Shown one piece after another: positions 976 to 41,683 of a stretch of DNA of 41,972 nt (its first letter is position 1; the number at the start of each line of letters is the position of its first letter). Position numbers and translations under genes: made by a program. The notes beneath the pieces were generated by a model, which was not told the origin of the DNA, did no database searches, and saw only the letters and a list, made by a program, of their open reading frames with translations. Source of the stretch: Bdellovibrionales bacterium (lineage in GTDB: Bacteria > Bdellovibrionota > UBA1018 > CAIMNF01); the NCBI GenBank assembly GCA_040380025.1, contig JBEIJY010000020.1, positions 1 through 41,972 on the forward strand. The letters are read 5' to 3'.

Positions 976-1172
976 AACTGCCCCCTTTGAGTGTGCTTTT
1001 GCGCCAAGCGGTTGCGCGCCAAGGGGAGGGAATGACCTAATTATTGCCGACTCTCGCGTGCCAGGATGGCGAAAGCGAGGCGGGAGGACCCGGCTCGGAG
1101 GCAATAATTAAGTCATTCCCTCCCCTTGGCGCGCAACCGCTTGGCGCAAAAGCACACTCAAAGGGGACAGTT
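976..1172 (+). repeat. PAL-1: ~200-bp palindromic element
   Basis: 73-bp arms 976-1048 and 1100-1172 (2 mismatches) around the 51-nt core GACTCTCGCGTGCCAGGATGGCGAAAGCGAGGCGGGAGGACCCGGCTCGGA. Confidence 0.95.
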
Positions 1173-1217
1173 GGTTTGCTCTGGACAACCCCGCAACCCC
1201 CTTTTTATCCTGTATCC

Positions 1218-1673
1218 ATGTCTCTCACCGCGCGCCACAAGAAGCCAGGAGCCTTCCGGAAACTCGTGAACTCGCTCGAGATCACCCCGCAGGATCGTCG
1301 TGCAAAGATCTTGAATGCGATGCGGGTGGAAGATCCGGATTTCGTGACCGCGGTCGAGAAATGCCTCTTTGAGTTCGCCGAATTCAAGAACCTGAACGAG
1401 ATGATCCTTGCCGATGTCGTGTACGCCATGAAGGACGACATGCGCTCGGTCGCGATTGCCCTCTACAAATGCAAGGACGAGGAGCTCCTGGGCAAATTCG
1501 TGAAGAGCATGCTTCCTGCACAAGGCTCGGCATTCAAAGAGGAACTCAGCATGCTGACCGCGATCACCGTGGGCCAGCAAAAGGGCGCGCAATTCAAGGT
1601 GATCGAAAAGGCGCGGGAGCTGCAGGAGAATGGCGTTGTTACCATTAAGGAATATGCGCCGCAGTATACCTAG
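1218..1673 (+). CDS. FliG C-terminal domain-containing protein (stand-alone paralogue)
   Basis: 151 aa from ATG 1218. EDPDFVTAVEKCLFEFAEF and QKGAQFKVIEKARELQENGVV resemble FliG_C. The upstream ORF extension lies in PAL-1. Confidence 0.75.
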   Translation: MSLTARHKKPGAFRKLVNSLEITPQDRRAKILNAMRVEDPDFVTAVEKCLFEFAEFKNLNEMILADVVYAMKDDMRSVAIALYKCKDEELLGKFVKSMLPAQGSAFKEELSMLTAITVGQQKGAQFKVIEKARELQENGVVTIKEYAPQYT

Positions 1674-1677
1674 CCTT

Positions 1678-1884
1678 AACTGCACCTTTTCGTTGTTCCC
1701 GCGGGGAGGGGGAGGCTGAAGAATGTATACGGAATCATTCAATTTTTTTGGGTTCGTCGGATCGGTTGATTTGGAGCGCTCCGGGAGCAAAGCCAAGCAA
1801 TCCCGCCAGAGAAGGAAAACAAAGGGGTTCGAGAGCGATCTTGAATTCGCCCAAGGGAGAAAAGAACAATGAAGTGGATCAGTT
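1678..1884. repeat. PAL-d: heavily eroded copy of the palindromic element
   Basis: Left end AACTGCACCTTTTCGTTGTTC pairs 16/21 with right end GAACAATGAAGTGGATCAGTT 207 bp away. Inner GTATACGGAATCATTCAATTTTT resembles PAL-2 GTCTACGGGATCATTCGGTTTTT. Core not recognisable. Confidence 0.5.
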
Positions 1885-2948
1885 TGGCCGGGATGACAAT
1901 CCTCGCCGCAACCCTATGGTGGAAATCCTCACACGTTGAAAAACCTCATTCCTTTCTCGAAAGAAAGGCCGCTTCTGTTTCGGAGGACGAATCCAGTCTT
2001 GTCGATTCCGGATTTCTTGAATCAATCGAGGAATTTCAGGGTGCCGGTGAACTCGGGGCTCTCGGCAATCACGAGTGCGAAAGGTATCTTTTGAGTCTTG
2101 ATCTGGGTACCTCGACCGATCAGGGAGGCCGAATGGTGGATTGGCTCGTTTCTCAAAACGTGCCCGTTCTCTTGTTCATGGTGGGGAGGAATCTCAAAAC
2201 CGGACCGTATCAGGAAATTCTTGAAAAAATCCGGGATCCCAAGTCCTCGTATTCCCGATTGATCATGATCGGCAATCACACCCAAACTCATCGTGGGTTC
2301 GCGAATTTGCCCGGGACGGAAATACGAGATGAAATCACGGGTGCTGAGACTTCGTTCAAGGAAGCAGGAATTCCTGAAAAAAACTTCGCCCGGGTATTCC
2401 GGTTTCCAAAGGCGGAAATCACGCCGGATGCACTGAAGATCGTGGGGAATTCCGGTTATGAGGTATTGGGTTGGAGTGTCGAAACCGCCGATTGGATTCC
2501 GCCCTATGACCCAAACCATAAAGATGCAAAAACCGTTCGGTACTACAAGCGAGTCACCTCTCCGTGGGGGCTTGCCTCGTTCGTGAAGAAGCAGCTTTCA
2601 ATCGAGACTCCAGTGGGAGGATTCACCGATGCCCAGATCGAGTCCGCAATCAACAAGGCAGGGTTGTGGGGGAAGCCAATCCCGGGAATCACTGGTCCTT
2701 CGGCCGAGCGGATCAAGAATTCTGTCTTGAGCAATCACTGCAATGACAGCGGCCTCAGTATCCCACTGCTTCATTTTTCGGGAGAAAACACATTCGAAGC
2801 GATTCAATCGATCATTCCGGCATTGCGAGAGTCGCGCAAAAAGTTGGTATCGATTTCGAGTTTGACGATTCATGATGCAGTCGAGTCTTCATTTAAGGGG
2901 GGCGCGCCCGAAACGGCCGGTACCGCACGATTCGTGACCGGTTACTAA
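1869..2948 (+). CDS. Exported polysaccharide/peptidoglycan deacetylase (CE4, NodB homology)
   Basis: N-terminal hydrophobic segment; motifs GNHTQTH, FRFP, ETADW, LLH; motif 1 is SLDLG rather than TFDDG. Confidence 0.8.
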   Translation: MKWISLAGMTILAATLWWKSSHVEKPHSFLERKAASVSEDESSLVDSGFLESIEEFQGAGELGALGNHECERYLLSLDLGTSTDQGGRMVDWLVSQNVPVLLFMVGRNLKTGPYQEILEKIRDPKSSYSRLIMIGNHTQTHRGFANLPGTEIRDEITGAETSFKEAGIPEKNFARVFRFPKAEITPDALKIVGNSGYEVLGWSVETADWIPPYDPNHKDAKTVRYYKRVTSPWGLASFVKKQLSIETPVGGFTDAQIESAINKAGLWGKPIPGITGPSAERIKNSVLSNHCNDSGLSIPLLHFSGENTFEAIQSIIPALRESRKKLVSISSLTIHDAVESSFKGGAPETAGTARFVTGY

Positions 2949-2996
2949 GCGAATGGGATGGAACGATGATGCAAAACCCAGTACACTCAGGCCCCG

Positions 2997-4061
2997 ATGA
3001 AGCCGCCCGCTTGGTCCGACGAGCACGTGTATTTCGATCCGGGGCCGTATTTTCAGGATCTCTTCCGGGCGATCGACCAAGCGCGCGTCACGATCGATCT
3101 TGAGAGCTACATCTTCGAGCTTGATCCGGTGGGATATGAAATGATCGAGCGGCTGAAGGGGGCCTCCGGGCGCGGAGTCAAGGTCCGCGTGATCCTGGAT
3201 GGAGTAGGATCGTGGCTCACCCACGAGGCGATCGCAGAAGCCTGGAAGAACACCCGCATCGAGCTCAAGATCTACCATCCGTTCTCTTTCTTGGGCCTCG
3301 CGTTCTCGCAAGTGAACAAGCGCCTTCATCGCAAGGTCATTCAAATCGACCGTAAGATCGTCTTCACCGGAAGCTTCAATATCACCGCAAAACCCAATCG
3401 CGACACCGGCGTCCGCCTTGCCGGAGGCGATCAGGAAAGTTTTGCTCAGGCGTTCGAGAGGATCTGGAGCACGCGTTTCAAGACATTCGGTCGGGCAGGG
3501 CGCACAAGGCGTTCCCGACGCGTTCCTCTTCGGGTGCGGTTGAACGAGACCAAGCGCCTGCGCCGCATTTGCAACCATGACCTTTCGCGCCGGATTCTCT
3601 CGGCAAAAAAACGGGTTTGGGTGACGAATGCTTATTTTGTTCCGCCTTTTTTTCTTCTTCGTGCCCTTTGCCATGCAGGCTTATCGGGTGTCGACGTGCG
3701 GCTCATTCTTCCCGAGCGCTCCGATCATTTGTTCATGAAGTGGGTCGCGCTCGCGTTCTACCGCACGCTTTTACTGAGCGGAGTCAGGATTCTGGAATTC
3801 CAGAAGACGTTTCTTCATGCCAAGACCTGGATCATCGACGATTGGGTCATGGTCGGATCGACAAACCTGAACTACCGGAGCCTTGTCCATGATCTCGAGG
3901 TCGATGTCGTGCTCGGTTCAGAGCATTCCAGAATCGCCCTGGAGGAGCAGTTCGAAACCGATTCTTTTGACGCGGTCGAGCTTGATCCGATGACGTTTCG
4001 ACTCGGGTGGTTTTCCCGGTTTTTGCAGTGGGTCGTTCTGCGTTTCCGGTTTTTCATGTAG
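2997..4061 (+). CDS. clsB: Cardiolipin synthase B-like phospholipase D
   Basis: Two HKD motifs (HRKVIQID, HAKTWIID) and NAYFVP; adjacent to a ybhP-like gene. Confidence 0.85.
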   Translation: MKPPAWSDEHVYFDPGPYFQDLFRAIDQARVTIDLESYIFELDPVGYEMIERLKGASGRGVKVRVILDGVGSWLTHEAIAEAWKNTRIELKIYHPFSFLGLAFSQVNKRLHRKVIQIDRKIVFTGSFNITAKPNRDTGVRLAGGDQESFAQAFERIWSTRFKTFGRAGRTRRSRRVPLRVRLNETKRLRRICNHDLSRRILSAKKRVWVTNAYFVPPFFLLRALCHAGLSGVDVRLILPERSDHLFMKWVALAFYRTLLLSGVRILEFQKTFLHAKTWIIDDWVMVGSTNLNYRSLVHDLEVDVVLGSEHSRIALEEQFETDSFDAVELDPMTFRLGWFSRFLQWVVLRFRFFM

Positions 4062-4062
4062 A

Positions 4063-4821
4063 ATGAACTCCGTGCGAGTGATGACCTTGAACATCCACAA
4101 GGGGTTTTCGTTTTTCAACCGCCGGTCCGTTTTGGAAGAGCTGAAGTCGGGAATCCGCGGCCTTCAGGCCGATCTCGTCTGCCTGCAGGAAGTGCTGGGC
4201 GGGCATGAGGAGCACGCGAAACGCCCGCAATTCGAACACCTTGCGGACTCGATTTGGAGCCACTACGCCTATGGCCGGAACGCCGTGTACACGAAGGGGC
4301 ATCACGGAAACGCCATCTTGAGCCAGTTCCCGATCGAGAGTTTCGAGAATTTTGATATCTCAAACCACCGTCTCGAGCGCCGCGGGGTCTTGCATGCGAC
4401 CATCCTTCTGCCGGGAGAGTCGTCGCCCGGGCGATCGGAGACGCGAAAAAAACTCCATGTCATGACGGTGCATTTGGATTTGCTTTCGATCGGGCGAAAA
4501 CGCCAGCTTGCGCGGCTCACCGACCTGATCCGGAAGCGCGTGCTGCCGGGCGAGCCCCTTATTGTGGCGGGGGATTTCAATGACTGGGCCGAAGAGGCAA
4601 CCGATGCCCTGTTGGGAGGCTCGGGGCTCAACGAGGCGTTCTTGCAGGTCACAGGCGACCACGCGCGAACGTATCCGGCACAGTGGCCGCTTTTGAAGCT
4701 CGATCGGATTTATGTGCGGGATCTGAAAGTCGAGTCGGCGGCCAGGATCGAGGGTGGCGCGTGGAGCTCGCTTTCGGATCATCTCGGGCTTGTGGCCGAT
4801 GTGCGGATTCCGGTAGAGTAG
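4063..4821 (+). CDS. Endonuclease/exonuclease/phosphatase family protein (YbhP-like)
   Basis: TLNIHKG, LQEV, AGDFNDW, LDRIY and SDH motifs. Confidence 0.9.
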   Translation: MNSVRVMTLNIHKGFSFFNRRSVLEELKSGIRGLQADLVCLQEVLGGHEEHAKRPQFEHLADSIWSHYAYGRNAVYTKGHHGNAILSQFPIESFENFDISNHRLERRGVLHATILLPGESSPGRSETRKKLHVMTVHLDLLSIGRKRQLARLTDLIRKRVLPGEPLIVAGDFNDWAEEATDALLGGSGLNEAFLQVTGDHARTYPAQWPLLKLDRIYVRDLKVESAARIEGGAWSSLSDHLGLVADVRIPVE

Positions 4822-4840
4822 GGGCAGGAGATCCCCGATC

Positions 4841-5533
4841 TTGAGCCTTGATGCGCGAATCCGACACGCCTTTGGCACCCAATCTGAGCCCAAGGGACAT
4901 CTTCATCCCGAAGAGTGGGAGCGCCTTCGCCCGCGCTGGAAGCAAGTGCACGGCATCGCGGTCGCACGCGTGACCGCTCCCGAAGAGGAATGCGGAGAGG
5001 TCGACGCGCTCTGGACGAGCGAGCGGTCACTGCCGATTGCCGTCGTGACCGCCGATTGTGTTCCCATTTTACTTGAGCGGCATGACCGGTCTGCCGTGGC
5101 GGCGATCCATGCCGGGTGGCGGGGGACCCATGCGGGCATCATCGAAGCGTTTTTTCAGGCTCTTCCGAAGGAGTTCGCCGACCCCGCGCTCTGGAGCGCA
5201 CGAATCGGTCCTTGCATTCAGGCCTGCTGTTATGAGGTGAGCGAGGATCTGATGGATTCGTTTGTTGGCCGGTTTTCTGGCCGGTTTTTTGGGCTGGATC
5301 GTCGGCAAATCGAGCCCGCGTGGCGCAAGCTCGATCTGGTTGCCGTGAATCATGCCGTGCTTTCGGGCCTCGGGGTGAATGTGCGCGAGATCCACCCCGA
5401 TTGCACTCATTGTACGAAACAGGGGGAGGGCTTCCGGTACTTCAGCTATCGGCGCGGGGACCGGAACTCGCGGCAGTTTTCTGTGATCTCGATCGAACAA
5501 TTGCCAACTGCCCCCTTTGATTGTGCTTTGTGA
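4841..5533 (+). CDS. pgeF: Peptidoglycan editing factor PgeF/YfiH (laccase-domain protein)
   Basis: QVHG, TADCVPILL, HAGWRG, GPCI..CCYEV, FSYRR motifs. TTG start uncertain; the last codons lie in PAL-2. Confidence 0.9.
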   Translation: MSLDARIRHAFGTQSEPKGHLHPEEWERLRPRWKQVHGIAVARVTAPEEECGEVDALWTSERSLPIAVVTADCVPILLERHDRSAVAAIHAGWRGTHAGIIEAFFQALPKEFADPALWSARIGPCIQACCYEVSEDLMDSFVGRFSGRFFGLDRRQIEPAWRKLDLVAVNHAVLSGLGVNVREIHPDCTHCTKQGEGFRYFSYRRGDRNSRQFSVISIEQLPTAPFDCAL

Positions 5534-5709
5534 ATGAGGGAGCGCCGGGAAAGGTCTACGGGATCATTCGGTTTTTGCCGACTCTCGCGAGCGCGTGACG
5601 CGCGAAAGCGAGGCCGCACGACGCGGCTCGGAGGCAAAAACCGAATGATCCCGTAGACTTTTCCCGTGCTCCCTCGTTTTGTAAGAACAATCAAAGGGGG
5701 CAGTTGGCA
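5502..5709 (+). repeat. PAL-2: ~200-bp palindromic element
   Basis: Arms 5502-5579 and 5633-5709 around the 53-nt core GACTCTCGCGAGCGCGTGACGCGCGAAAGCGAGGCCGCACGACGCGGCTCGGA. Confidence 0.95.
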
Positions 5710-5744
5710 GGATGTATGATACCCTGACAAAAGGAACACCCACT

Positions 5745-7535: not shown

Positions 7536-7618
7536 TCCTGTCCGTCGCATCAGCATCAGAACAAATACCAACCCCGACGCGGCCGGCATGAAGTATCATT
7601 CCGGCCCGGAGGTGGGGT

Positions 7619-7813
7619 ATGTTCCAGATGTCTCTGTTCTCATTCCTCGCGGGTTTCGGGGTGATCCTTGCGGATGCCCTCAAACGGATCGATTACTCGT
7701 TGTCCTTGGCGGTGTTCGGAGCGGTGTTGATCGCACTCGCGATGATCTTCTTCATCGCAGGAATGCTGAAAAAGAATCGGCTTTCAACCGATTCCCATGA
7801 CTCGCTTCCTTAG
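7619..7813 (+). CDS. Small membrane protein, hypothetical
   Basis: 64 aa with two hydrophobic segments; GGAGG upstream. Confidence 0.5.
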   Translation: MFQMSLFSFLAGFGVILADALKRIDYSLSLAVFGAVLIALAMIFFIAGMLKKNRLSTDSHDSLP

Positions 7814-8643
7814 TGAAGCACGCCCGGATGGGGTGCCGAAGCCTCAGGAGCCGAGAGCGAGAACGAGAGCATCGAGAGAGTCTCGTACTCGACTCCGCGA
7901 TGGATCACCTCGACCTCGTCGCCCGGAAGGGCCGCCCCGATCGTGAAGAGCATCGGCAAGAAGTGCTCGTCCGAAGGATGCGCACGCAGGTAGAGCGGAT
8001 GGTCTTCGATGTTGACGATCGCCTCGACGTTTTTGGCCTTCAGGGCTTGGATGAGCCACGATTCGAACTCGACCGCCCACGGGGCGCCGGGGGAGTTCTT
8101 TTGCGACCAATTCAGCTCGCGAAGGTTGTGAACGGCTCCGCCGCTTGCGATCAGGAGCACGTTTTCTTTTCTCAGGGCCGAGAGCGTGTGGCCCAGCTTC
8201 AGGATCTGCGCAGGCATGAGTCCCAAGGGAAGACTCACCCGGACCACCGGCACATCGCCCTCGGGGTAGAGGTGCAGGAGCGGCATCCAGATTCCGTGGT
8301 CGAGCGGGGCATCGGGCTCGGATTTTACGGTGAATCCGGCCTGAATCAGCGATTCCGAAACCCGGTCGGCAATTTCGGGAGATCCCGGGCAGGTGTATTC
8401 GATTTCGTACAGCTCGCGGGGGAAACCCGAAAAATCATGTTGGATGCGGTTCTGCTCGCATCGGAGCACATGGACCGCTTCGCCCGAGATCGAATGCGCC
8501 GATACGATCACGATGGCGCGGGGTTTCGGAATCGAAAGGGCGAACCGCTCGAGCGCTTTTTGATAGGCGTCTTCTCCGAAGGCGAGCATGGGAGTGCCGT
8601 GGCTGAAAAAAACAGAGGGGAGGGATGCGGAATCGGGTTTCAA
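7810..8643 (-). CDS. DODA-type extradiol dioxygenase (LigB/YgiD family)
   Basis: SHGTP, SAH, HDFSGFP, LDHG, SGGAVHNL and AHPSDEHFLP motifs. Confidence 0.9.
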   Translation of the reverse strand: MKPDSASLPSVFFSHGTPMLAFGEDAYQKALERFALSIPKPRAIVIVSAHSISGEAVHVLRCEQNRIQHDFSGFPRELYEIEYTCPGSPEIADRVSESLIQAGFTVKSEPDAPLDHGIWMPLLHLYPEGDVPVVRVSLPLGLMPAQILKLGHTLSALRKENVLLIASGGAVHNLRELNWSQKNSPGAPWAVEFESWLIQALKAKNVEAIVNIEDHPLYLRAHPSDEHFLPMLFTIGAALPGDEVEVIHRGVEYETLSMLSFSLSAPEASAPHPGVLH

Positions 8644-8692
8644 AACAAGCCCTTTCTGGTTCTGCGGTTTGTGACCACAGGATCAAGTGCGC

Positions 8693-10378
8693 TCAGCGCG
8701 CATCGGTCGACAGGTACAAATGGATCCGCCCGTGCTTCGATGTCTCATGCCAGGAACGGTCCAGCCCCACGCCCTTCAGGACGGGGATTTCCATTTCTAC
8801 CACATTTCGGGCTTCCAGGGTGCTCGCGGTTTTCAGGATCATTTTTGCGATCTTCTTCTTGAAGAGGGGGGCCATCTGGCTCGGCAGATCGTATTCGGGA
8901 ATTCCGCGGAGGATCTCCTCGACCGTGCTGTTCACCTTCGTGACCTGAATGACGAGGGTCGGGTGTTCGTTGCGGTTTTCGAACGAGACCTTCGTGCCGA
9001 TCCGGAGGGGGAACCGGAGGACGCGCTTTCGTCCGATGATGGCGCGCTGGAGGCAGGTCACCGGCCGGAACAAGACATCGAGATACAGCTCGGGTCCGTT
9101 CTTCGGGTCACGGAGCACGACAAACGCGCCCTTCGGGCCCAAGGACAACTTTTGCTCGGCCAGCAAGGATTCCCAGAGTTTCGCATCGATCGAGGTCCTG
9201 AGAAACTGGTTCAGGTGCTCCTCTGAAACGCTCAGGGCAAGATCAGCCTTCCCCGAGGCGATCGTCGAGCGAAGCTCCTCGCGGGCCCAGCCCTGATCGG
9301 CATCGGGGATGATCCGTGCAGGCTTCACCGGGGGCGCCTGATCGACACAGGCCTCGCCGAGCTCGCGGTAGCGCGCATCGGTGCAGGAGCCTCCGGCAAC
9401 GAGGAGCGCAAGCTGGGAGGCATCGGGCTGGTCGAACGAGGCCAGCGCATAGCGCACAAACAGGGCCTCCGAGCTAAGCGAGATCGCACTCGGTGTCGTG
9501 CTCTGGAGCACGCGATTCAGGATCTGCGGTCCGATCGAGTCTTTCAGCGATTTTCCGACTTCCTTCAAAATCGTGCTCACGATGAGCTCGAGGTTCTTTT
9601 CGATCACGGGGCGGAAGAGATCGAACGAAAGGGTGCGCGTCAGGCGGTTCAGACGGATCACGACCGGATCGACCGAGACATTCGCAGTCGAGATCGGTCT
9701 TCCGGTTGCGGCATCGAGAGTCCGGATGGCACCGATGTGGGTGTTCACATAGCGGGGAATCGGGTCGAGATTGTAACCCTTCAGCTCGAAGGTGATCTTG
9801 TCCGAGCGCCGGGCTGCAAGATCGACCTCGAACTCGGCCGGAGGAAGTGTTTCGGGGATCTCGATCCGGATCGGGTCCAGGGAAGCCGTCAGAAGCGGCT
9901 CTTTTTGCTTGGTGCGCGGGTTCGAGACCATGAAGTCGATCTTGATCCCGTCGACGAGCCCCACGTCGACTCCCTGCAGGCTCGCGGCGGTCGAAATCTG
10001 AAGAAGCGGATCGGCCGAGGTGATGGTCTTCGGCTTCACCCGGAGCGAGTGGATGCTGTAATACACTCGCGGAATCCGGAGTCTGAGGTAGGATTCCTCG
10101 GCGTTGATCGAAAACACGCGCGAGATCGTTTCTTTCAGGCGCTCATAGGCGGGGTCGCGCACCAGGTCCTCGAGCGGAATCGGAGTATCGTCCTCGAGCG
10201 GCAGGGTGTTCGTCAGGCCGTCGGCAAGATTCGAATTTGCGAGTACGAGGCGTAGTTTTTCGATGAGCCACGAGACTGTTTTGGCGTCAAAACGGGTTTG
10301 CAGGATCAGATCGTCTTTTGCGGCAAAGGTCTGCGTGCTGAAAAAAAGAAAAATCAAACCAAACACGAACGGTTTCAT
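8693..10378 (-). CDS. Secreted hypothetical protein
   Basis: 561 aa with signal peptide MKPFVFGLIFLFFSTQTFA; overlaps the upstream gene by 4 nt. Confidence 0.8.
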   Translation of the reverse strand: MKPFVFGLIFLFFSTQTFAAKDDLILQTRFDAKTVSWLIEKLRLVLANSNLADGLTNTLPLEDDTPIPLEDLVRDPAYERLKETISRVFSINAEESYLRLRIPRVYYSIHSLRVKPKTITSADPLLQISTAASLQGVDVGLVDGIKIDFMVSNPRTKQKEPLLTASLDPIRIEIPETLPPAEFEVDLAARRSDKITFELKGYNLDPIPRYVNTHIGAIRTLDAATGRPISTANVSVDPVVIRLNRLTRTLSFDLFRPVIEKNLELIVSTILKEVGKSLKDSIGPQILNRVLQSTTPSAISLSSEALFVRYALASFDQPDASQLALLVAGGSCTDARYRELGEACVDQAPPVKPARIIPDADQGWAREELRSTIASGKADLALSVSEEHLNQFLRTSIDAKLWESLLAEQKLSLGPKGAFVVLRDPKNGPELYLDVLFRPVTCLQRAIIGRKRVLRFPLRIGTKVSFENRNEHPTLVIQVTKVNSTVEEILRGIPEYDLPSQMAPLFKKKIAKMILKTASTLEARNVVEMEIPVLKGVGLDRSWHETSKHGRIHLYLSTDAR

Positions 10379-12123
10379 TGGTACTCCTCACCGACATCGC
10401 GAAGCGTTCCCGAGATCAATAGCCCGTGATTCTGCGAAACCCGGACATTCCGCACCCGCAAGGTCAGATCCCGAAGCGAAATGTCCTGGTTCGTCGGAAT
10501 CGTGATCCTTTTCGGAAGGAGCGTCTCGAATTCCTTCCGCACGGACTTCATGAAGCTCTTCTTCACGACCGCGGTCATCGACGGGACGTTGCTCGGGCAC
10601 CAGCCCGGAGGGCAGTTCTCGGGCGGAAGGTACTCCCCCGATGCGGTGAAGGGAAGCACGGGTCGGAGCGTGAGAATCGACCCGCCATTGGCATCGCGCG
10701 TGATCGCCTCGATGAAGAACTTCACCTCGACGGGAATCTTCACCGATTTGCCCGATCCGAAAATCCGCTCGATCAGGTCGCCAAGCTCGCGTGAGATCCG
10801 CTCCCCGAACGAGGAGTTCGAGCGCACTGTTTTGATGATGTCGATGTCGAGGTTCAGAATCGCAGAAATCGCATTCTGTGCGGGATTGAGCCTGACTTTG
10901 ACTCCCGTGGGGGAGAGGCTCACGCCGGGCGAGGTGCCCGATTCATTGTACCAGCGGCGGATCCGCGTCTGCACCGCTTCGGAATGAACGAGATCCTGTA
11001 CCACGGACTCATAGAACACGACCCCCGCATGATCCTCGGAATCCATCGAGAGCAGGTCTTCGACGCCCACGGGACTGGTGGGACTCGCCGAGGTGAGGCA
11101 GGAGCCGTCAAAGCAAAAGCGCGCCGCGATCCGCGCCGAAAACAAGCGCGATTGCTCGAAGAACTGAAGCGAGTTGATCATGAGGTCGGTCTGGATGCCG
11201 GTCAGGTAGGATTTGATCTTCGGGTCGAGCGTGGAAGTGCGGAGCAGATCGTCCGAAACAAGCGTGAGCCGGAAGGGCGGCTGGGCCTCGATGGTTCCGG
11301 CAAGCTGGATCATGTTCTCGTGAATCGCTTTCACCAAGCGCTCGCGGAGTGTTTTCATGATCATGGGCTCCATCTCCTGGAACTCGCGCCGGATGACCTC
11401 TTCGCGCGCGATGAGCGATCCGCCGTTCGAGCGGATCTCGAGTTCGAGCGGTTCGCGGTCGACGGTGAGGCGGCCGAGCTTCAAGAAGAACTCCGGTGCG
11501 ATCCGGTCCTTCAGGTTGGTGCGGTAGCCGGTGATCTTGATCCGTGTTCCCTCGTTCGTCAGGTCGAGGAGGATCTTCAGCTCGAGCCGGATCGGCTGCG
11601 AATCGGCTTTCAGGCCGATCACGATCGGGGAGGAGTTGATCAGGAACGCACGCGGAAAAATCCCCTCGGGCACGCGGATCGAGAGGTTCTCGGTGCGCGC
11701 GCTCAGCTCGGTGATCTTCCAGCCCGCGATCACCTCGAAGCGGTTCTCGGCTTTTTTGACCACCTTGATTTTGAGCGCGGAAGCCGGCAGAAGGAGCCGC
11801 GCCTGCACGGGATGGATGGCGATGTCAAGCCGGTCGCGAATTCCGAGAATGTCGAGAATCTCTTTCAATCCCGGTTTCGGATCGGGGAGATCGATGGTTT
11901 GCTGATAGGCCGAGGTCTCGATCGAGAGGGCGCTTCCCTCGGTGTCGCCGTTCAGGGCGCGTGCGATCATTCCGCGCACCACGTTCTCGATGCTGTCATT
12001 CCGGATCAGGGTGTTTCCGATCGGGCGGACCCCTGGGAGCGATTCGAAATCGACTTCCTGGGAAAGGGCGAAAGGACAAAAAACCAGATTCAAAAGCAGA
12101 AGCGCGGTCGATGGTGTCCTCAT
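10375..12123 (-). CDS. Secreted hypothetical protein
   Basis: 582 aa with signal peptide; translationally coupled to 8693..10378. Confidence 0.8.
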   Translation of the reverse strand: MRTPSTALLLLNLVFCPFALSQEVDFESLPGVRPIGNTLIRNDSIENVVRGMIARALNGDTEGSALSIETSAYQQTIDLPDPKPGLKEILDILGIRDRLDIAIHPVQARLLLPASALKIKVVKKAENRFEVIAGWKITELSARTENLSIRVPEGIFPRAFLINSSPIVIGLKADSQPIRLELKILLDLTNEGTRIKITGYRTNLKDRIAPEFFLKLGRLTVDREPLELEIRSNGGSLIAREEVIRREFQEMEPMIMKTLRERLVKAIHENMIQLAGTIEAQPPFRLTLVSDDLLRTSTLDPKIKSYLTGIQTDLMINSLQFFEQSRLFSARIAARFCFDGSCLTSASPTSPVGVEDLLSMDSEDHAGVVFYESVVQDLVHSEAVQTRIRRWYNESGTSPGVSLSPTGVKVRLNPAQNAISAILNLDIDIIKTVRSNSSFGERISRELGDLIERIFGSGKSVKIPVEVKFFIEAITRDANGGSILTLRPVLPFTASGEYLPPENCPPGWCPSNVPSMTAVVKKSFMKSVRKEFETLLPKRITIPTNQDISLRDLTLRVRNVRVSQNHGLLISGTLRDVGEEYQ

Positions 12124-12304: not shown

Positions 12305-12342
12305 TTTCAGAGGGGTAAGCCTGAAAAAGAAAGGAGGATGGC

Positions 12343-26092: not shown

Positions 26093-26100
26093 TTTTTTCA

Positions 26101-26301
26101 CACCGCTCTGTTTGTGTGCGCATTTCTTGAATCTCCCATCAGGATCGGGCTCAACCAGAAAAGAAGTTTGACCTCCGAGCCGCGTCGTGCGGCCTCGCTT
26201 TCGCGCGTCACGCGCTCGCGAGAGTCGGCCAAATTTCTTTTCTGGTTGAGCCCGCTCCTGATGGGAGATTTCCGAATCGGGCGCACACATACGGTGCGGT
26301 G
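26101..26301 (-). repeat. PAL-3: ~200-bp palindromic element (core on minus strand)
   Basis: Core 26174-26226 is the exact reverse complement of the PAL-2 core. Arms 26101-26173 and 26227-26301 are self-complementary but of different sequence. Confidence 0.93.
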
Positions 26302-26321
26302 ACTAAAGGAGAGTCTGTCTT

Positions 26322-29265: not shown

Positions 29266-29276
29266 GATCAGGGGCG

Positions 29277-30155: not shown

Positions 30156-30871
30156 AAACGAAACGACACTACAGCATCAAGATTTTCTCGGACGGAGCGG
30201 AAAAAGACCAGTTGCTCAAGATGAACCGGAATCCCTTGGTGAGCGGGATGACGACCAACCCCTCGCTCATGAAAAAAGCCGGGGTCTCGGATTACCGCGC
30301 GTTTTGCAAGGAAGTGCTCTCGGAGATCACCCAAAAGCCCCTTTCGTTCGAAGTGTTTGCCGATGATTTCGCGACCATGGAGCGCCAGGCTCGCGAGATC
30401 GCGACCTGGGGCCGGAATGTGTACGTGAAGATCCCGATCCAGAACAGCAAGGGCGAGTCCGCGATTCCCCTCGTCCGGACGCTGACCCGCGCCGGGATCA
30501 AGCTGAACGTGACGGCGATTTACACCGTCAAGCAAACCATCGAGGCCTGTCAGGCGCTCGAAGGCGGTGCGCCCTCGATCGTCTCGATTTTTGCCGGTCG
30601 CGCGGCCGATCTCGGCCATGATCCGGTCCCGACCCTGACCGCGGCGGCCGAGGTGTGCGCGGCCTACGGCGGCGAGATCGAGAGCCTCTGGGCCTCGACC
30701 CGCGAGGTGTACAACATCCTTCAGGCCGAGCAGTGCGGGATCAAGATCATCACGGTTCCGTTCGACGTGCTCGCGAAACTCGACTCGGGGTTCAAGACCC
30801 TCGAAGAGCTGAGCCTCGACACCGTGCTGACCTTCAAAAAAGACTCCGAGTCGGCCGGATTTCAGCTCTGA
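30152..30871 (+). CDS. tal: Transaldolase (short type)
   Basis: IFSDGA, TTNPSL, VYVKIP, NVTA, SIFAGR, WASTRE. Confidence 0.92.
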   Translation: MKTKRHYSIKIFSDGAEKDQLLKMNRNPLVSGMTTNPSLMKKAGVSDYRAFCKEVLSEITQKPLSFEVFADDFATMERQAREIATWGRNVYVKIPIQNSKGESAIPLVRTLTRAGIKLNVTAIYTVKQTIEACQALEGGAPSIVSIFAGRAADLGHDPVPTLTAAAEVCAAYGGEIESLWASTREVYNILQAEQCGIKIITVPFDVLAKLDSGFKTLEELSLDTVLTFKKDSESAGFQL

Positions 30872-30946
30872 ATCGCCTCAATCCCGAGCATTGAAACTTC
30901 GGCCCGTTCGCTAGGAAAACCCCGAAGCCTGTGCTAGCGTTCGGGC

Positions 30947-32494: not shown

Positions 32495-32511
32495 AGATCA
32501 AGGAATCCACC

Positions 32512-33882: not shown

Positions 33883-34823
33883 AAAAAAAGGTTCTGCTGA
33901 CCGGGGCCGCGGGATTTGTCGGAAGCCATCTGGCCGAGCGGCTTTTGGCCGAAGGCTTTGCGGTGACCGGGGTCGATAATCTGTGCACCGGCCGCAAAAA
34001 GAATCTCGAGACCTTCCGGGATCATCCGGATTTTTCGTTCCTCGAGGCCGATGTGATCGAGGATCTGCCCGCTGAGGTCTGCAACACCCGCTGGGACTGG
34101 GTGATGCACTTCGCGTCTCCGGCTTCTCCGCCGAAGTATTTCGCCCTGCCGCTCGAGACCATGCGGGTGAACAGCGAGGCGACCCGGAAGCTATTGGAGA
34201 TTTGCCGCCGCCAGGGCGCACGCTTTTTTTATGCCTCGACCTCGGAGGTGTATGGCGATCCGCTGGTCCATCCCCAGCCGGAGTCGTATTGGGGGAATGT
34301 GAACCCGATCGGCGTGCGTTCGATTTACGACGAGGCCAAGCGCTACGGCGAGGCAATGACGTATTCGTATCAACGCACGCACGGGGTCGATGTGCGGGTG
34401 ATCCGCATCTTCAACACCTATGGCCCGCGGATGGACCCCGAAGACGGACGCGTGGTCACGAATTTGATGTTCCAGGCCCTGCGCGGCGAGCCCATGACGA
34501 TTTACGGCGACGGGCTCCAGACCCGGAGCTTTCAGTATGTTTCGGATCTGGTCGAGGGAGTCGTGCGGCTCATGGCCTCGAACCACACCGGACCGGTGAA
34601 CCTCGGAAACCCGGGCGAGTTCACGATTCTCGCCTTTGCCGATGTGGTGAAGCGCCTCGTTCGGACGAAAAGCGAGCTTCGGTTCGAGCCGCTTCCGTCG
34701 GATGATCCGAAGCAGAGAAAGCCCGAGATCTCGCTCGCCCGAAGCCTCCTGCAGTGGGAACCCCGGGTGGATCTCGAGGCGGGGCTAGCGCTCACGCTCG
34801 GGTTCTTCCGCGATCACGAGTAA
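33879..34823 (+). CDS. uxs: UDP-glucuronate decarboxylase (UDP-xylose synthase)
   Basis: GAAGFVG, ASPASP, STSEVYGDP, YDEAKR, RIFNTYGPRM; start at MKKKV overlapping the ugd stop. Confidence 0.93.
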   Translation: MKKKVLLTGAAGFVGSHLAERLLAEGFAVTGVDNLCTGRKKNLETFRDHPDFSFLEADVIEDLPAEVCNTRWDWVMHFASPASPPKYFALPLETMRVNSEATRKLLEICRRQGARFFYASTSEVYGDPLVHPQPESYWGNVNPIGVRSIYDEAKRYGEAMTYSYQRTHGVDVRVIRIFNTYGPRMDPEDGRVVTNLMFQALRGEPMTIYGDGLQTRSFQYVSDLVEGVVRLMASNHTGPVNLGNPGEFTILAFADVVKRLVRTKSELRFEPLPSDDPKQRKPEISLARSLLQWEPRVDLEAGLALTLGFFRDHE

Positions 34824-35018
34824 GCTGCCCCCTTTGATTGTGCTTTTGCGCCATGCGCGCACGCCCAAGGGGTGGGAATGATTTAGTTTTTGCCTCCGAG
34901 CCGGGTCCTCCGGCCTCGCTTTCGCCATCCTGGCTCGCGAGAGTCGGCAAGAACTAAATCATTCCCACCCCTTGGGCGTGCGCGCATGGCGCAAAAGCAC
35001 AATCAAAGGGGGCAGTTT
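34822..35018 (-). repeat. PAL-4: ~200-bp palindromic element (core on minus strand)
   Basis: Arms 34822-34894 and 34946-35018 (2 mismatches); core 34895-34945 is 49/51 identical to the PAL-1 core. Confidence 0.95.
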
Positions 35019-35022
35019 GATC

Positions 35023-36399: not shown

Positions 36400-36443
36400 G
36401 ATGCGGGGAGTTTCGCAAAAACGGGGCTGATTTGCAAACCCCC

Positions 36444-36643
36444 CAAACTGGCCTCCTTGACTGCGCCTAATTTCAAAGCTCGAACGGCGAACTGCCCGAA
36501 ATAAAAATGGTTTTGCCTCCAAGCCGGGTCGTCCGGCCTCGCTTCCGCCATCCTGGCTCGCGAGAGTCGGCCAAACCATTTTTATTACGGGTACTTCGCT
36601 GTTCAAGCCTCCGTAATTAAGCGCAGTCAAGGAGGCCAGTTTG
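36444..36643 (-). repeat. PAL-5: ~200-bp palindromic element (core on minus strand)
   Basis: Arms 36444-36517 and 36569-36643 with terminus variant CAAACTGGCCTCCTTGACTGCGC on both arms; 51-nt core 36518-36568. Confidence 0.93.
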
Positions 36644-36644
36644 C

Positions 36645-36673
36645 TTGAAAAACCATACTCTTTCGTATAGATT
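36645..36673 (+). promoter_or_regulatory. Putative sigma-70 promoter of nfuA
   Basis: TTGAAA-17 nt-TAGATT immediately outside PAL-5. Confidence 0.5.
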
Positions 36674-36683
36674 CATCCAACCT

Positions 36684-37247
36684 ATGGAACATTCTGCCGT
36701 TTACGTCTCGCTCGAGTTCACCCCGAACCCCAACACCCTGAAGTATTCCGTGAACCGGAAGCTCCTCGACAAGGGCGCCGCAAATTTCACCAAAAAAGAG
36801 GACGCCGAGCAGCGCTCGCCCCTCGCATTCAAGCTCCTGCTCGTCGAGGGCATTGCCGGGGTCATGATCGGAAAAGACTTCGTGACCATCACCAAGACCG
36901 AAGACGGCGACTGGGACCACGTGCACAAGACGGCATCGGACACGATCGAGAAGCACCTGACGGCGGGTGAGGTAGTCGTGATCGAAGAGATTCTGAATCA
37001 GCTCACGAACCAGAACGCGAGCGAGATCGAGAAGCGGATCCAGAAGGTCCTGGACGACGAGATCCGTCCGGCGGTGGCGATGGACGGCGGAGACGTGACC
37101 CTGGACCGGTTCGAGGACGGGATCGCGTACCTGTATATGCAGGGATCATGCGCCGGGTGCCCGAGTGCGACGATGACCCTCAAGATGGGAATCGAGACGA
37201 AGCTGAAGGCGCAAGTGCCGGAAGTGATTGAAGTAGTTCAGATCTAG
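36684..37247 (+). CDS. nfuA: NifU/Nfu Fe-S cluster carrier
   Basis: Nfu_N (EFTPNPNTLKY) plus NifU-C (IRPAVAMDGGD, GSCAGCPS). Confidence 0.92.
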   Translation: MEHSAVYVSLEFTPNPNTLKYSVNRKLLDKGAANFTKKEDAEQRSPLAFKLLLVEGIAGVMIGKDFVTITKTEDGDWDHVHKTASDTIEKHLTAGEVVVIEEILNQLTNQNASEIEKRIQKVLDDEIRPAVAMDGGDVTLDRFEDGIAYLYMQGSCAGCPSATMTLKMGIETKLKAQVPEVIEVVQI

Positions 37248-37250
37248 CGC

Positions 37251-37446
37251 AAACTGCCTTACTTGATTGTGCAGAATTAAAAGAAGCACTTCGGCAAGTC
37301 CCTGAAAGTAGAATCATTCTTCTGGATCGGGAGCATGGCGAAAGATCGGCTGGGTCCGAATGTCGGACTTGATGGCAAAATCTTCCGTCCTTTTGCATGG
37401 TTCTCGCGTGCGATTTTTAACTCTGCACAATTGATTCAGGCAGTTT
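37251..37446 (+). repeat. PAL-6: degenerate palindromic element
   Basis: Termini AAACTGCCTTACTTGATTGTGCAGAATTAAAA and TTTTAACTCTGCACAATTGATTCAGGCAGTTT 196 bp apart; core relic ATGGCGAAAG...TCGGA. Confidence 0.8.
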
Positions 37447-38023
37447 AGAAGTCGAACCGGTTCAGCGACCCCTCGCCCACCGCCGGAGCTTTCCGCTCCT
37501 CCTCCGACGCGGGCCTTCTGTCCTTCATCTTGGGCTGCTTGGATTCACCCAAAACCGGAGCCGCGCTCTCGTTTCTCTCGTCGCCGTCCGGGTACCACTG
37601 GGTCGGAGCCGGGTCGAGCGTGAAGGGCTTCCAGTTTCCGCCGAGGAGCTGGTTCGAGAGGGCAATCTTGTCGAAGTCTTTTTCTTTCGGGTCCTGAAAC
37701 GCCTGGAGCGCCGGTTGGAACGGCACCCCGAGGATCGCGCGTCGGATCAGCGGCCTGGTTTTTTCGCCCAACCGGTAGCCGATCACCATGACCTTCTTGC
37801 CCTCGACGCGGTCATCGAGCTTGGCCGAGAGCCCCTTCAGCGACCCCTTCGGGTAAACGTGAATCTCGAGGTTCCCCTCCCATTCAATCACATCGACACG
37901 CTTGCCGGACGGGCCTTTTCCGTCGAGGCGGTCAAAAACCTCTTCTGCGAACACCGCAACCGAGGCCAGGATGCCGCTTGCGATTGCCGACAGGACGAGG
38001 AGCGTACGAAACGAGGGAATCAT
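37445..38023 (-). CDS. Secreted hypothetical protein
   Basis: Signal peptide ending AVFA; start uncertain (38023 or 38038); stop overlaps the PAL-6 end. Confidence 0.75.
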   Translation of the reverse strand: MIPSFRTLLVLSAIASGILASVAVFAEEVFDRLDGKGPSGKRVDVIEWEGNLEIHVYPKGSLKGLSAKLDDRVEGKKVMVIGYRLGEKTRPLIRRAILGVPFQPALQAFQDPKEKDFDKIALSNQLLGGNWKPFTLDPAPTQWYPDGDERNESAAPVLGESKQPKMKDRRPASEEERKAPAVGEGSLNRFDF

Positions 38024-38082
38024 GACGGAGGGTCTCATTACTGACACTATCGTCAAGGTTCCGGCGGAACTTGAGCCATTTT

Positions 38083-38284
38083 CAAACTGCCTCATTTGAT
38101 TGTGCATAGTAAGGGAGCGGGACTGGCAGAGGGCGTTGGAATGATTTCGTTTTTCTGTACGGGCCGGGTCGTCCCAGTTTCGCTCAGATCATCGTGGCGC
38201 ACGGAGGTCGGTAAAAACCAAATCATTCCAGTATCTTAATTTTCGCCGCTCGCATAATTATGCACAACCAAATCAGGCAGTTTG
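38083..38284 (-). repeat. PAL-7: partly degenerate palindromic element (core on minus strand)
   Basis: Termini CAAACTGCCTCATTTGATTGTGCATA and TATGCACAACCAAATCAGGCAGTTTG; inner GGAATGATTT/AAATCATTCC; core relic GCCGGGTCGTCC...GTCGG. Confidence 0.88.
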
Positions 38285-38320
38285 CGGGCATCCCCCCCTT
38301 CTGGTACCGTCCCCTCATCT

Positions 38321-40012
38321 ATGGCCAAACCAAAGTTCGCGTTTTCGATGACCCGCGTGTCTAAAATTTACCCCCCGAGCAAGACCGTGCTTCGGGACAT
38401 CTCGCTCTCGTTCTTTTACGGCGCGAAGATCGGCGTCCTCGGGCTGAACGGCGCCGGGAAGTCCACCCTCATGAAGGTCATCGCCGGCGAAGAAAAGAAC
38501 GTGAACGGCGAGGTTCTCCCCTCGGACGGAATCACCTTCGGCTACCTGAAGCAGGAGCCCGAGCTCGACAACACGAAGACTGTAAAAGAGATCGTGATGG
38601 AGGGAACCGGAGAACTCGGTCGCGATCTGAAGCGCTTTGAAGAGATCGGAATGAAGTTTGCCGATCCCGATCTCGATGCCGACGAGATGACAAAGCTCCT
38701 CGAGGAGCAGGCGGTGATTCAAGAACGGATCGAGGCGAAAGACGGCTGGGACATCGACCGCAAGCTCGAGGTCTCGATGGAGGCGCTTCGCTGTCCTTCC
38801 GGCGATACGCCGGTCAAGAACCTCTCGGGCGGGGAGCGGCGTCGGGTCGCCCTGTGCCGGCTTTTGATTCAGCGGCCGGATGTCTTGTTGCTCGACGAGC
38901 CCACCAACCATCTCGATGCCGAGTCGGTCGCATGGCTCGAGCAGTTTTTGCAAAAGTACGAAGGCACCGTGATCGCCGTGACCCACGATCGGTACTTTCT
39001 GGACAACGTCGCGGGCTGGATCCTCGAGCTCGACCGCGGTCACGGAATCCCCTGGGAAGGCAATTACTCGAGCTGGCTTGAGCAAAAGCAATCCCGCCTG
39101 ATCCAAGAAGAAAAAACCGAGTCCAAGCGCCAAAAGACCCTGGAGCGCGAGCTCGAGTGGATTCGCATGAGTCCGAAAGCGCGTCAGGCCAAGAGCAAGG
39201 CCCGCGTGAGCGCGTACGAGGCCCTGTTGAACGAGAGCCAGGGCGGCCGCCGAGAAGAAGAGATGGAGATCTTCATTCCCGCAGGACCGCGTCTTGGCTC
39301 GGTGGTGATCGAGGCCGAGAACCTCTCGAAGCGGTTTGGCGGAAAAGTCTTGTTCGAGAACCTGAACTTCAAGATCCCGCCCGGAAGCATCGTGGGCGTG
39401 ATCGGCGGGAACGGGGCCGGAAAATCGACCCTCTTCAAAATGCTGACCGGCAAAGAGACGCCCGATTCGGGCGCGATCCGTCTCGGCGACACGGTGAAGC
39501 TCGGGTATGTCGATCAGTCGCGCGACAGCCTGAACCCCGAGAACACTGTGTGGGAAGAGATCTCGGACGGAAAGAACGAGATGGTCCTACTTGGAAACCG
39601 CGAGGTTCCCTCGCGCTCGTACTGCTCGCGCTTTAACTTCACGGGATCGGATCAGCAAAAAAAGGTGGGGATTCTCTCGGGCGGGGAGCGGAACCGCGTG
39701 CATCTGGCGAAGATGCTGAAGTCGGGCGCGAACGTGCTCTTGCTCGATGAGCCGACCAATGACCTCGATGTGAACACCCTGCGCGCGCTCGAAGAGGCGC
39801 TTTCGAATTTTGCCGGAACCGCCATGGTGATCTCGCACGATCGCTGGTTCTTGAACCGGATCGCGACGCACATTCTGGCCTTCGAGGGAGACTCGAAGGT
39901 GGAGTTCTTCGAGGGGAATTTTGATGACTACGAGGAAGACAAGAAGCGTCGCCTCGGGGCTGAGGCCTTGATGCCGAAGCGAGTCCGGTACCGCGCGCTC
40001 GAGATGATTTGA
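38321..40012 (+). CDS. ettA: Energy-dependent translational throttle ABC-F ATPase
   Basis: ISLSFFYGAKIGVLGLNGAGKST, two ABC domains, linker ELEWIRMSPKARQAKSKAR. Confidence 0.96.
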   Translation: MAKPKFAFSMTRVSKIYPPSKTVLRDISLSFFYGAKIGVLGLNGAGKSTLMKVIAGEEKNVNGEVLPSDGITFGYLKQEPELDNTKTVKEIVMEGTGELGRDLKRFEEIGMKFADPDLDADEMTKLLEEQAVIQERIEAKDGWDIDRKLEVSMEALRCPSGDTPVKNLSGGERRRVALCRLLIQRPDVLLLDEPTNHLDAESVAWLEQFLQKYEGTVIAVTHDRYFLDNVAGWILELDRGHGIPWEGNYSSWLEQKQSRLIQEEKTESKRQKTLERELEWIRMSPKARQAKSKARVSAYEALLNESQGGRREEEMEIFIPAGPRLGSVVIEAENLSKRFGGKVLFENLNFKIPPGSIVGVIGGNGAGKSTLFKMLTGKETPDSGAIRLGDTVKLGYVDQSRDSLNPENTVWEEISDGKNEMVLLGNREVPSRSYCSRFNFTGSDQQKKVGILSGGERNRVHLAKMLKSGANVLLLDEPTNDLDVNTLRALEEALSNFAGTAMVISHDRWFLNRIATHILAFEGDSKVEFFEGNFDDYEEDKKRRLGAEALMPKRVRYRALEMI

Positions 40013-40058
40013 TTTCAGTGATGCTCATTTAGGTTTATAAATTCCAGCGATTCCCGTC

Positions 40059-40093
40059 ACGGCGGTTCGGAGGTTCTCCGGGCCGCCGTTTTT
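40059..40093 (+). terminator. Intrinsic terminator after ettA
   Basis: ACGGCGGTTCGGAG-GTT-CTCCGGGCCGCCGT stem with G-U pairs, followed by a T run. Confidence 0.75.
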
Positions 40094-40111
40094 GTTCGCG
40101 GTAACTGAAGG

Positions 40112-40140
40112 TTGACAAAACGTGTCAAAATCCTTATTTT
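40112..40140 (+). promoter_or_regulatory. Sigma-70 promoter with palindromic operator
   Basis: TTGACA-17 nt-TATTTT; the -35 is one arm of TTGACA-N5-TGTCAA. Confidence 0.55.
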
Positions 40141-40175
40141 CTCGCCCTGCCTGGAATTCCAGCGAAAGACTCTGT

Positions 40176-41468
40176 ATGAAACAAATTCAATTGACCTTGC
40201 TTTGTGTGATGCTCGCGCTCGTCGCCTGCTCGAAAGAAACCCGCGTTAAAAAGACCCAACAGGGTCAGACCGCCCCGGGGACCACAACCCCGCCGACGGG
40301 CCAAATCGATAAGCCCACTCCAAAACCCGGAGACGAAAACACGGATGGCTCCAATGGGTCTCCGACCGAAGGCGGCCCGATCAGCGCCACCATAATGAAA
40401 GAAATCGAACCGATTTCGGTGACCGATTCGAAAGAGCTTCCCTCCAAGATTATGGGGATCTCCCCCCCAAGGACTGAATTCAATGTGCCCTTTCGGACGA
40501 TGTATTCTCCGTCGGTTTCGGAAATCCAAAACGATGGGAGCAGTCTCGAATATGTCGTCGGAAACGCCGTTGCGGTTCGGGTGCGGATGCAAGTTCCGAA
40601 GGAAGAAGAACTCGCTTCGATCGGTTCGATGGTTTTGAAACTGAGCAACGTGACTCTGGTGACAAAAACTGGTCAAACTCAGGTTTCGGGTTTGCAAAAG
40701 ATTTGCGTCGTAGGAACGTCGCTCGAGTGCAAGGATCTCGACACCTCGAAATTCACACCGCTGAATTTGCCGCCGACGGCCCCGCACCAGGTCTCAAAAC
40801 AGGAGCAAGTCGAGGTAGACCTCCTGAAGGTATTCGACATCGATGCTAGCCCGAAAGGCGTGGCAACCTGGCTTCAGGAGCACTCAACCGAGTATCATTC
40901 CGACGGCTCCCGAAAAATGATCTTTGTGTTGAATGATCACTTGTACCCCGAAAGTGGAACATTCGAATTCGCGCACGGTTTACAACCGGGCGTGATGAGC
41001 GGGGAGATTGCAGAACCTGAAGGCGATGATGCGAACGGTTTTTTTGTTGAGCTGTTGTCGACGAACGCTCCTGCAATAGACCCCCCTAGTGGCGGCGACC
41101 CGGTTGCCGCCGCCCCGGCACCTCTCTCTGTGACCGTAAAGACAGCGCAAACGAAGAGGGGAAGCTTAATTCAAAGTTATAAGACCCAGGTCGAAAATGC
41201 AGCAAAGGCAATTTTCGACAAGATCAATGAAATCAGTAAAATCACCATCGACTGCAACTGTGCTCATTCAATGATCGGGATCGAGCCCGAGGTATCCGGG
41301 ATTTTGAAAGAGAAGGGCATCCCCACGGATAAGATCGTCTCGGGGAACACGACGCTTTCATGCGGGAGTGGTAAAGGGAACCTCACCCTTTCGATTGAAT
41401 TTGCTCCAGGGGCGACGGAGCAAACGAGGACGGATCTTGAGGCGGCACTACAATCAGCGCAACAGTAA
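40176..41468 (+). CDS. Lipoprotein, hypothetical
   Basis: MKQIQLTLLCVMLALVAC lipobox and T/P/G-rich linker; visibly more AT-rich than the flanking genes. Confidence 0.8.
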   Translation: MKQIQLTLLCVMLALVACSKETRVKKTQQGQTAPGTTTPPTGQIDKPTPKPGDENTDGSNGSPTEGGPISATIMKEIEPISVTDSKELPSKIMGISPPRTEFNVPFRTMYSPSVSEIQNDGSSLEYVVGNAVAVRVRMQVPKEEELASIGSMVLKLSNVTLVTKTGQTQVSGLQKICVVGTSLECKDLDTSKFTPLNLPPTAPHQVSKQEQVEVDLLKVFDIDASPKGVATWLQEHSTEYHSDGSRKMIFVLNDHLYPESGTFEFAHGLQPGVMSGEIAEPEGDDANGFFVELLSTNAPAIDPPSGGDPVAAAPAPLSVTVKTAQTKRGSLIQSYKTQVENAAKAIFDKINEISKITIDCNCAHSMIGIEPEVSGILKEKGIPTDKIVSGNTTLSCGSGKGNLTLSIEFAPGATEQTRTDLEAALQSAQQ

Positions 41469-41481
41469 GGCGCGGTTTTCT

Positions 41482-41683
41482 CAAACTGCCCCCTTTCATT
41501 GTGCTTGATGGGGCAGTGGGATGAGGAGAAGGGATTGGGATGATTCGGTTTTCCCCGACTCTCGCGAGGCAGGATTGCCGACAGCGAGGCCGCAGGACGC
41601 GGTTCGGAGGAGAAAATCGAATTATTCCAATCCCTTATCTTCATCCCTCGGCACAAAAAAGCACAGGCAAAGGGGGCAGTTTG
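41482..41683 (+). repeat. PAL-8: ~200-bp palindromic element
   Basis: Arms 41482-41556 and 41609-41683 around the 52-nt core GACTCTCGCGAGGCAGGATTGCCGACAGCGAGGCCGCAGGACGCGGTTCGGA. Confidence 0.93.

Follow-up and report, generated by a model that had tools for sequence, protein, structure and literature searches.

The palindromic elements of about 200 bp that recur along a 41,972-nt stretch of a Bdellovibrionales genome (contig JBEIJY010000020.1, positions 1 to 41,972; the window hereafter) are most likely transposable elements of the miniature inverted-repeat type (MITEs), likely moved in trans by a co-resident transposase resembling that of the insertion sequence (IS) IS1, with arms probably homogenised by template switching. 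We label these elements PAL and number the window copies PAL-1 to PAL-8. A MITE is their most likely identity because they share their ends with the IS1-like element, because 9-bp duplications are seen on both element types, and because relatives carry empty sites. The two arms of a copy also undergo symmetric changes. The genome carrying the window (G000; its contigs are given as C5, C12 etc.) comprises 2.35 Mb at 58% GC, and was compared with 16 congeners (including G002, G010 and G013) and 24 other genomes; proteins homologous to those it encodes bear Bdellovibrionales/Oligoflexia labels. PAL ends are taken 2 nt outside the motif AACTG.

Target duplications and empty sites

When 14 registers were scanned in 41 PAL copies, the sole register above chance was 13 from AACTG (z 4.3), which corresponds to a 9-bp duplication abutting the refined ends. 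The match is complete in four copies (9/9), reaches 8/9 in two and 7/9 in a further two.

Copy numbers are specific to lineages. A covariance model of the central core, whose counts are lower bounds (at most 117 candidates were scored per genome), gave at least 83 matches in G000, at least 43 in G002, at least 24 in G013 and at least 18 in G010, 0-5 matches in the 13 other congeners, and none in the 24 other genomes. Thirty-five G002 copies were examined, of which 13 lie between genes with adjacent best matches in G000, 11 have non-adjacent matches and 11 have no pair. Twelve of the 13 syntenic sites are empty in G000, two of these calls resting on matches more than 400 nt away, and the only one occupied in both genomes is PAL-3. 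Two metagenome contigs, L111 and L112 (NfuA 92% and 77% identical), are without PAL-5, their spacers measuring 101 and 87 nt versus 284 nt, and are too diverged to give the exact empty-site sequence; PAL-6 was not seen behind nfuA in either. The sequence-only reading of the window had proposed aligning orthologous loci and had suggested a non-autonomous mobile element. Empty sites were found at the syntenic loci and at manC/nfuA, and the suggestion gains support from them as well as from the lineage-specific copy numbers, the 9-bp duplications and the ends shared with the IS1-like element.

The probable IS1-like partner element

Screening for lone termini and recurrent genes exposed a putative transposase of 307 aa next to PALs in G000 (C5:100091-101011), encoded between two full copies. 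A homologue 63% identical to it is encoded on C12 between two worn PAL-like elements. In both cases about 35 nt separate the end of the upstream element from the start of the gene, the frame enters the downstream terminus, and the flanking PALs or PAL-like elements have the same junctions. G000 also contains six contig-end fragments of a collapsed multi-copy IS1-like element, one of which forms positions 1-121 of the window (+ strand), where the right end of the element is cut by the contig start; the transposase gene's final 19 codons and its stop occupy 1-60, and the right terminal repeat, at 97-121, is related to the PAL termini.

Transposase homologues occur in 16 of 41 genomes, with most in the PAL-rich ones (6, 12, 11 and 11). 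Relatives have 45 transposase loci of full length, and a terminal-repeat pair with flanks was found at 41 of them, where the elements measure 968-1136 bp and their ends read as two variable bases followed by AACTG (NN-AACTG), as in PAL. Across these 41 loci a duplication length of 9 gives z 4.1 and the next best, 6, gives z 2.4; the one 9/9 duplication belongs to a tandem copy located at the end of a contig. The agreement of the ends is closest outside G000. Between the PAL terminus of G002/G013 and the IS ends of G010/G013, 23/24 positions agree, and G002 PAL ends have a mean best identity of 0.84-0.85 to the IS ends of G002, G010 and G013, compared with 0.46-0.77 to others. The consensus PAL terminus of G000 reaches 19/24 at best.

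The protein has an invariant C50 and C53 and a nearly invariant C5 and C10 (a Cys4 motif), a stretch resembling a helix-turn-helix (HTH), and invariant D134, D213 and N259. It matches NF033558 (IS1) over residues 42-166 with E 2e-9, at 37.5 and 41.6 bits and thus below the cut-off of 100, and HTH_50 with E 0.11. Its Atlas neighbours are of the IS1 family, and sequence search gave no relative with a solved structure. The unnamed IS1-like family to which it belongs has more than 4,000 homologues. Four elements with intact frames (L395, L409, L430 and L432) have a common left flank in G001, G007, G011 and G016, which suggests long vertical persistence of the transposase.

Arms that change in step

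In 42 two-armed copies, the identity between the arms of one copy is 0.85-0.94 in the 40 nt nearest the core, drops to 0.56-0.66 at 41-50 nt and climbs again at the terminus, whereas arms of different copies are 0.44-0.79 identical (mean 0.62), the range within those 40 nt being 0.49-0.79. When copies were compared with their nearest sibling (24 pairs, 775 sites), 50 sites had undergone an identical change in each of the two arms and 35 a change in a single arm, and only 2.0 symmetric changes would be expected if the arms evolved independently. The arms thus change in step, probably through copying of one arm from the other. The copying mechanism may be template switching, which has been reported, in the available text of one source, to homogenise arms and invert spacers (PMC8604942). 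One PAL core, at C42:4406, is flipped relative to four siblings. With about 50 copies, the PALs of G000 offer as many natural replicates of arm-to-arm copying within one genome.

Proposed mechanism and its weak points

As a MITE, a PAL would be bound at its 23-25-bp ends by the zinc-finger/HTH transposase and inserted with a 9-bp stagger. Fold-back copying during replication may then rewrite about 40 bp on either side of the core and sometimes flip it. The core itself could have begun as a separate element of greater age, whose high mobility in a single clade followed the acquisition of IS ends, and our best guess is that it is conserved by a protein binding two single-strand hairpins.

Several observations weigh against this explanation. 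Most PAL copies (33/41) match at 6/9 or less in their flanks, and 21 copies from relatives give a duplication signal of only z 1.6. The eight window PALs reach at most 4/9, so that the earlier statement that there is no target-site duplication stands for them, though not for the genome as a whole. In G000 the PAL ends are 0.73 identical to those of the genome's own multi-copy IS and up to 0.75 identical to those of other genomes, and no duplications emerge when the flanks of the collapsed IS's three left ends are set against those of its three right ends. The PAL-flanked transposase genes seem the likelier partners in G000. This composite arrangement was seen in that genome only, and among 28 IS loci no other bears a core immediately next to the gene. 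Genomes in which the core has 0-2 matches (G001, G006, G007, G011 and G016) also possess the transposase, and its presumed third catalytic residue would, by our assignment, be the invariant Asn259 and not Glu. For the copying of the arms, C42:4406 is the only clear core flip.

Family size, gene context and anatomy

A profile built from the eight window PALs gave 113 matches in G000 and 0 in the reversed genome. These merge into 110 loci, of which 37 lie at contig ends and 49 are internal and at least 170 nt long; PALs are found at 40 of the 106 contig ends. They cover 0.7% of the genome, mostly in intergenic regions, and the density of about one per 5 kb noted earlier holds for the window, the genome-wide value being about one per 21 kb. 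By gene calls that are crude and ad hoc, the 44 full copies occupy 21 tandem, 16 convergent and 7 divergent gaps, in agreement with the range of contexts first described, and convergent gaps are enriched (16/44 versus 105/1023 gaps of at least 30 nt). The core occurs in either orientation, as had been seen, and in tandem gaps it shows no bias (10 in the same direction as the flanking genes, 11 opposite). One called long open frame (C12:40661-42994; L384) spans the PAL copies at 40881 and 41568, possibly reflecting in-frame insertions or a false gene call.

Each PAL consists of a terminus of about 23 nt, an outer arm, an inner arm, the core and the mirror arm, with the palindrome extending through about 75 bp of each arm. 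The core length of 51-53 nt given by the sequence-only reading is borne out in 47 anchored copies (51 nt in 27, 52 nt in five and 53 nt in 15). A single copy folds with z = -22 as DNA and -21 as RNA against 200 shuffles. The core comprises two hairpins with RTCNY loops, one on a bulged stem. In a set of 30 cores drawn from eight genomes, paired cells make up 91%, versus 75% in shuffled and 30-47% in slid controls; this was reached in 0/500 shuffles, a count that concerns related sequences and hence is not a probability.

The description of the family as unrecognised stands in that no Rfam family reached its gathering score for PAL (scans by E value gave only generic hairpin matches to microRNAs), and falls short in that the core module resembles Desulfotalea-1. 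No publication on PAL was found in literature searches, with ISfinder and subscription journals outside their reach. The core pattern had 0 matches in viral contigs; a search of plasmids gave two matches at chance level.

The core beyond the transposon ends

Seven low-copy genomes have cores that lack recognisable termini and are enclosed by short arms, nearly perfect but unrelated in sequence; among these genomes are G003, G004 and G005, in which the transposase was not found with this query. Fourteen of the 35 G002 copies likewise have no recognisable terminus. Because such terminus-free cores exist, some of them in genomes with no detected transposase, the PAL core appears to have a history apart from that of the IS.

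A resemblance to two orphan RNA motifs of Weinberg et al. 2010, Desulfotalea-1 and Bacillaceae-1 (RF01690), the latter with RUCCU loops, bears on what the core may be. In the accessible part of the source, the Desulfotalea-1 alignment shows a bulged hairpin with many copies per genome (PMC2864571). Like these families, as far as that part describes them, the PAL core has a stem, a 4-nt pyrimidine-rich internal loop, a short stem with an (R)TCC loop, a 2-nt YC bulge and a second RTCC hairpin, again in many copies per genome. The order of the hairpins is reversed in PAL, however, and ten loci matching a Desulfotalea-1-like pattern are without long enclosing arms. A bulged-hairpin descriptor, written knowing both groups, matches all ten of these loci (10/10) and, in G000, has 44 matches inside PALs and 0 both outside them and in the reversed genome. 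RF01690 gave seven weak matches, far below the gathering score (best E 1.7), and six of these fall on PALs, although PALs cover just 0.7% of the genome. The covariance models did not cross-detect the two groups: model R2 gave six matches at E up to 10, none of them a PAL, and the best overlapping match of model R1 had E 3.5. A phylum-wide search with model R1 (31 candidates scored per genome) had matches in at least 6 of 151 genomes, and the Desulfotalea-1-like pattern has one match in viral contigs. It is conceivable, although we hold it only tentatively, that the two-hairpin RTCC-loop core is a widespread, undescribed DNA element related to Desulfotalea-1 and Bacillaceae-1 that actively turns its flanks into inverted repeats and that, through duplication of one IS end, made a MITE in one step, with PAL-transposase-PAL as a new REPtron-like unit employing an IS1-type D-D-N enzyme.

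Another reading, in which the core is itself the mobile unit, inserts with its own enzyme and builds an inverted copy of the neighbouring DNA, the IS ends being passengers acquired a single time and used only on occasion, seems unlikely to us. The terminus-free cores speak for it, as does a tRNA-like gene end in G002 and G016 of which the far arm holds an inverted copy. High copy number nevertheless goes with termini, the duplications abut the termini and not the core, and no candidate enzyme emerged, the IS110 and reverse transcriptase families having no match in G000.

Low-copy cores just behind tRNA-like gene ends, read by eye, are found at L217, L086, L096, L088 and L351, and at the first two an inverted repeat of the tRNA 3' end stands in the far arm. 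Multi-copy repeats that contain a 20-mer of the core are also present in Planctomycetota, Bacteriovoracaceae, Oligoflexia and other bins (L231-L326); by an ad hoc score, an enclosing inverted repeat accompanies 14 of 96 such stretches, and many others are at contig ends or are chance coding matches.

Y1 proteins and host-selected RNAs

Both Y1 genes of G000 (C13:34583-35182, L016; C25:18392-18895, L017) are directly followed by a PAL or a PAL deletion derivative, two Y1 genes of other families (L039 and L040) have a core-type palindrome upstream, and some PAL termini fit the TIRtron motif GGGG[AT][CG]A[CG], as given in the available text (PMC3733652; PMC6006769). PALs might accordingly be taken for REPIN/TIRtron-type repeats moved by these RAYT-like HUH proteins, a possibility we consider very unlikely. 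In both G000 proteins the catalytic Tyr and the initial His of HUH are missing. No core match lies near any of six Y1 loci examined in PAL-rich relatives, and the PAL that follows the C25 gene is flanked by a perfect 9-bp duplication and so looks like an ordinary insertion. HUH transposition is not known to yield 9-bp duplications.

RayT-like Y1 genes are present in 27 of 41 relatives (L018-L045), and many copies, including both in G000, have kept full frames after losing the HUH histidine and catalytic tyrosine. These copies have a common upstream CATTGCCCC motif, which may be a promoter element, and G030, of the same order, has 21 matches to a Y1 protein, an IS-like expansion.

Least probable of all is that PALs are structured RNAs selected by the host (terminators, stabilisers or CsrA-binding decoys) and spread by recombination, since, for all the covariation of the core helices, the enrichment in convergent gaps, the presence of CsrA in G000 and the many core loops that read AGGA on one strand, the core has no strand bias, the commonest core (8/47) is without GGA in both loops, PAL sites are mostly not common to the species, and core covariation can stem from copying at the DNA level. 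The repeated structured RNA first put forward as one of two options is thus not favoured, because core orientation is unbiased relative to flanking genes; a secondary RNA role would be compatible with the MITE explanation.

Other candidate partners were set aside. A stand-alone GIY-YIG gene with a PAL upstream has a core match at 0 of 11 orthologous loci, and GIY-YIG does not figure in PMC3733652. Four tyrosine recombinases in G000, one next to a half-PAL, gave no core match, and the IS4/IS5 and IS256 families have no match in G000. Resemblance to integron attC sites and to hammerhead or hepatitis delta virus (HDV) ribozymes was judged by eye only, and dropped.

Features of the window

All eight copies first listed are present, with their ends only slightly shifted to give 198-205 bp each, and the conserved terminus and variable arms hold. 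PAL-1 (974..1174; core 1049-1099, orientation -) has termini that match the consensus at 20/21 and 19/21 positions and flanks that match at 4/9. PAL-2 (5504..5707; core 5580-5632, -) lies between a pgeF-like gene and pepF. The termini of PAL-3 (26099..26303; core 26174-26226, +) are worn, at 13/21 each, confirming the divergence noted for this copy. PAL-4 (34821..35019; core 34895-34945, +) separates a convergent NAD-dependent epimerase/dehydratase gene and manC, and PAL-5 (36444..36643; core 36518-36568, +) the divergent manC and nfuA. PAL-6 (37250..37447, -), after nfuA, and PAL-7 (38083..38284, +), upstream of ettA, have degenerate cores, and PAL-8 (41482..41683; core 41557-41608, -) is a near twin of the copy at C7:3612.

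A solo sequence resembling the terminal repeat lies at 1862..1886 (- strand), its partner not found; it has a terminal-matrix score of 28.8, a cut-off at which the reversed genome also has one match. Between the IS end and PAL-1, positions 132-771 are AT-rich and contain two short minus-strand open reading frames without family matches. Long open reading frames without an NCBIfam or Pfam match are found at 7813-12123, 37445-38023 and 40122-41468.

Comparison with known systems

The MITE explanation gives an orphan palindromic repeat a concrete and testable mobiliser, and ties predicted 'structured RNAs' that have long been unexplained to dispersed DNA repeats. Several other repeats with a conserved core and variable self-matching arms may yield their mobilisers to a search for 9-bp duplications and for IS ends that have collapsed where contigs end.

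PALs are short, non-coding and multi-copy, share termini with an IS, are in a minority of copies flanked by duplications of the parent's length, and are present or absent at orthologous sites. It was by the same criteria, in the part of the source available, that MITEAba12 was assigned to its parent ISAba12 (PMC6382973). The likeness to that pair, so far as it is described there, extends to termini shared with an IS of the same genome, to 9-bp duplications that a minority of the copies show, and to identity to the IS only at the ends (PMC6382973). The claim that PAL is a candidate new system was therefore too strong, as PAL fits a known class. Unlike described MITEs, PALs have long palindromic arms that change in step, far more diverse copies, a conserved and structured core also found where the ends are absent, and a probable partner in an unnamed IS1-like element.

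The IS1 family is characterised, in the accessible text, by a zinc finger, an HTH, a DDE motif and an 8-9-bp duplication (PMC12428005). The partner element shares the zinc finger, HTH and 9-bp duplication and has putative acidic catalytic motifs, its match to NF033558 being weak. It differs in having a single frame of 300 aa, a length of about 1.0 kb, NN-AACTG ends, an invariant Asn at the position expected for Glu, scores below all curated cut-offs, and numerous divergent copies in each genome, some of which occupy orthologous sites.

As with REPIN/RAYT and TIRtron/TIRYT systems, in the portions of the sources available, PALs are intergenic palindromes enriched between convergent genes, and flank a transposase gene (PMC3733652; PMC6006769). 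In contrast to those systems, the PAL terminal matrix shows no GTAG/CGTC tag, 9-bp duplications are present, the gene between the repeats encodes an IS1-like enzyme and not a Y1 protein, and the Y1 proteins of G000 seem inactive.

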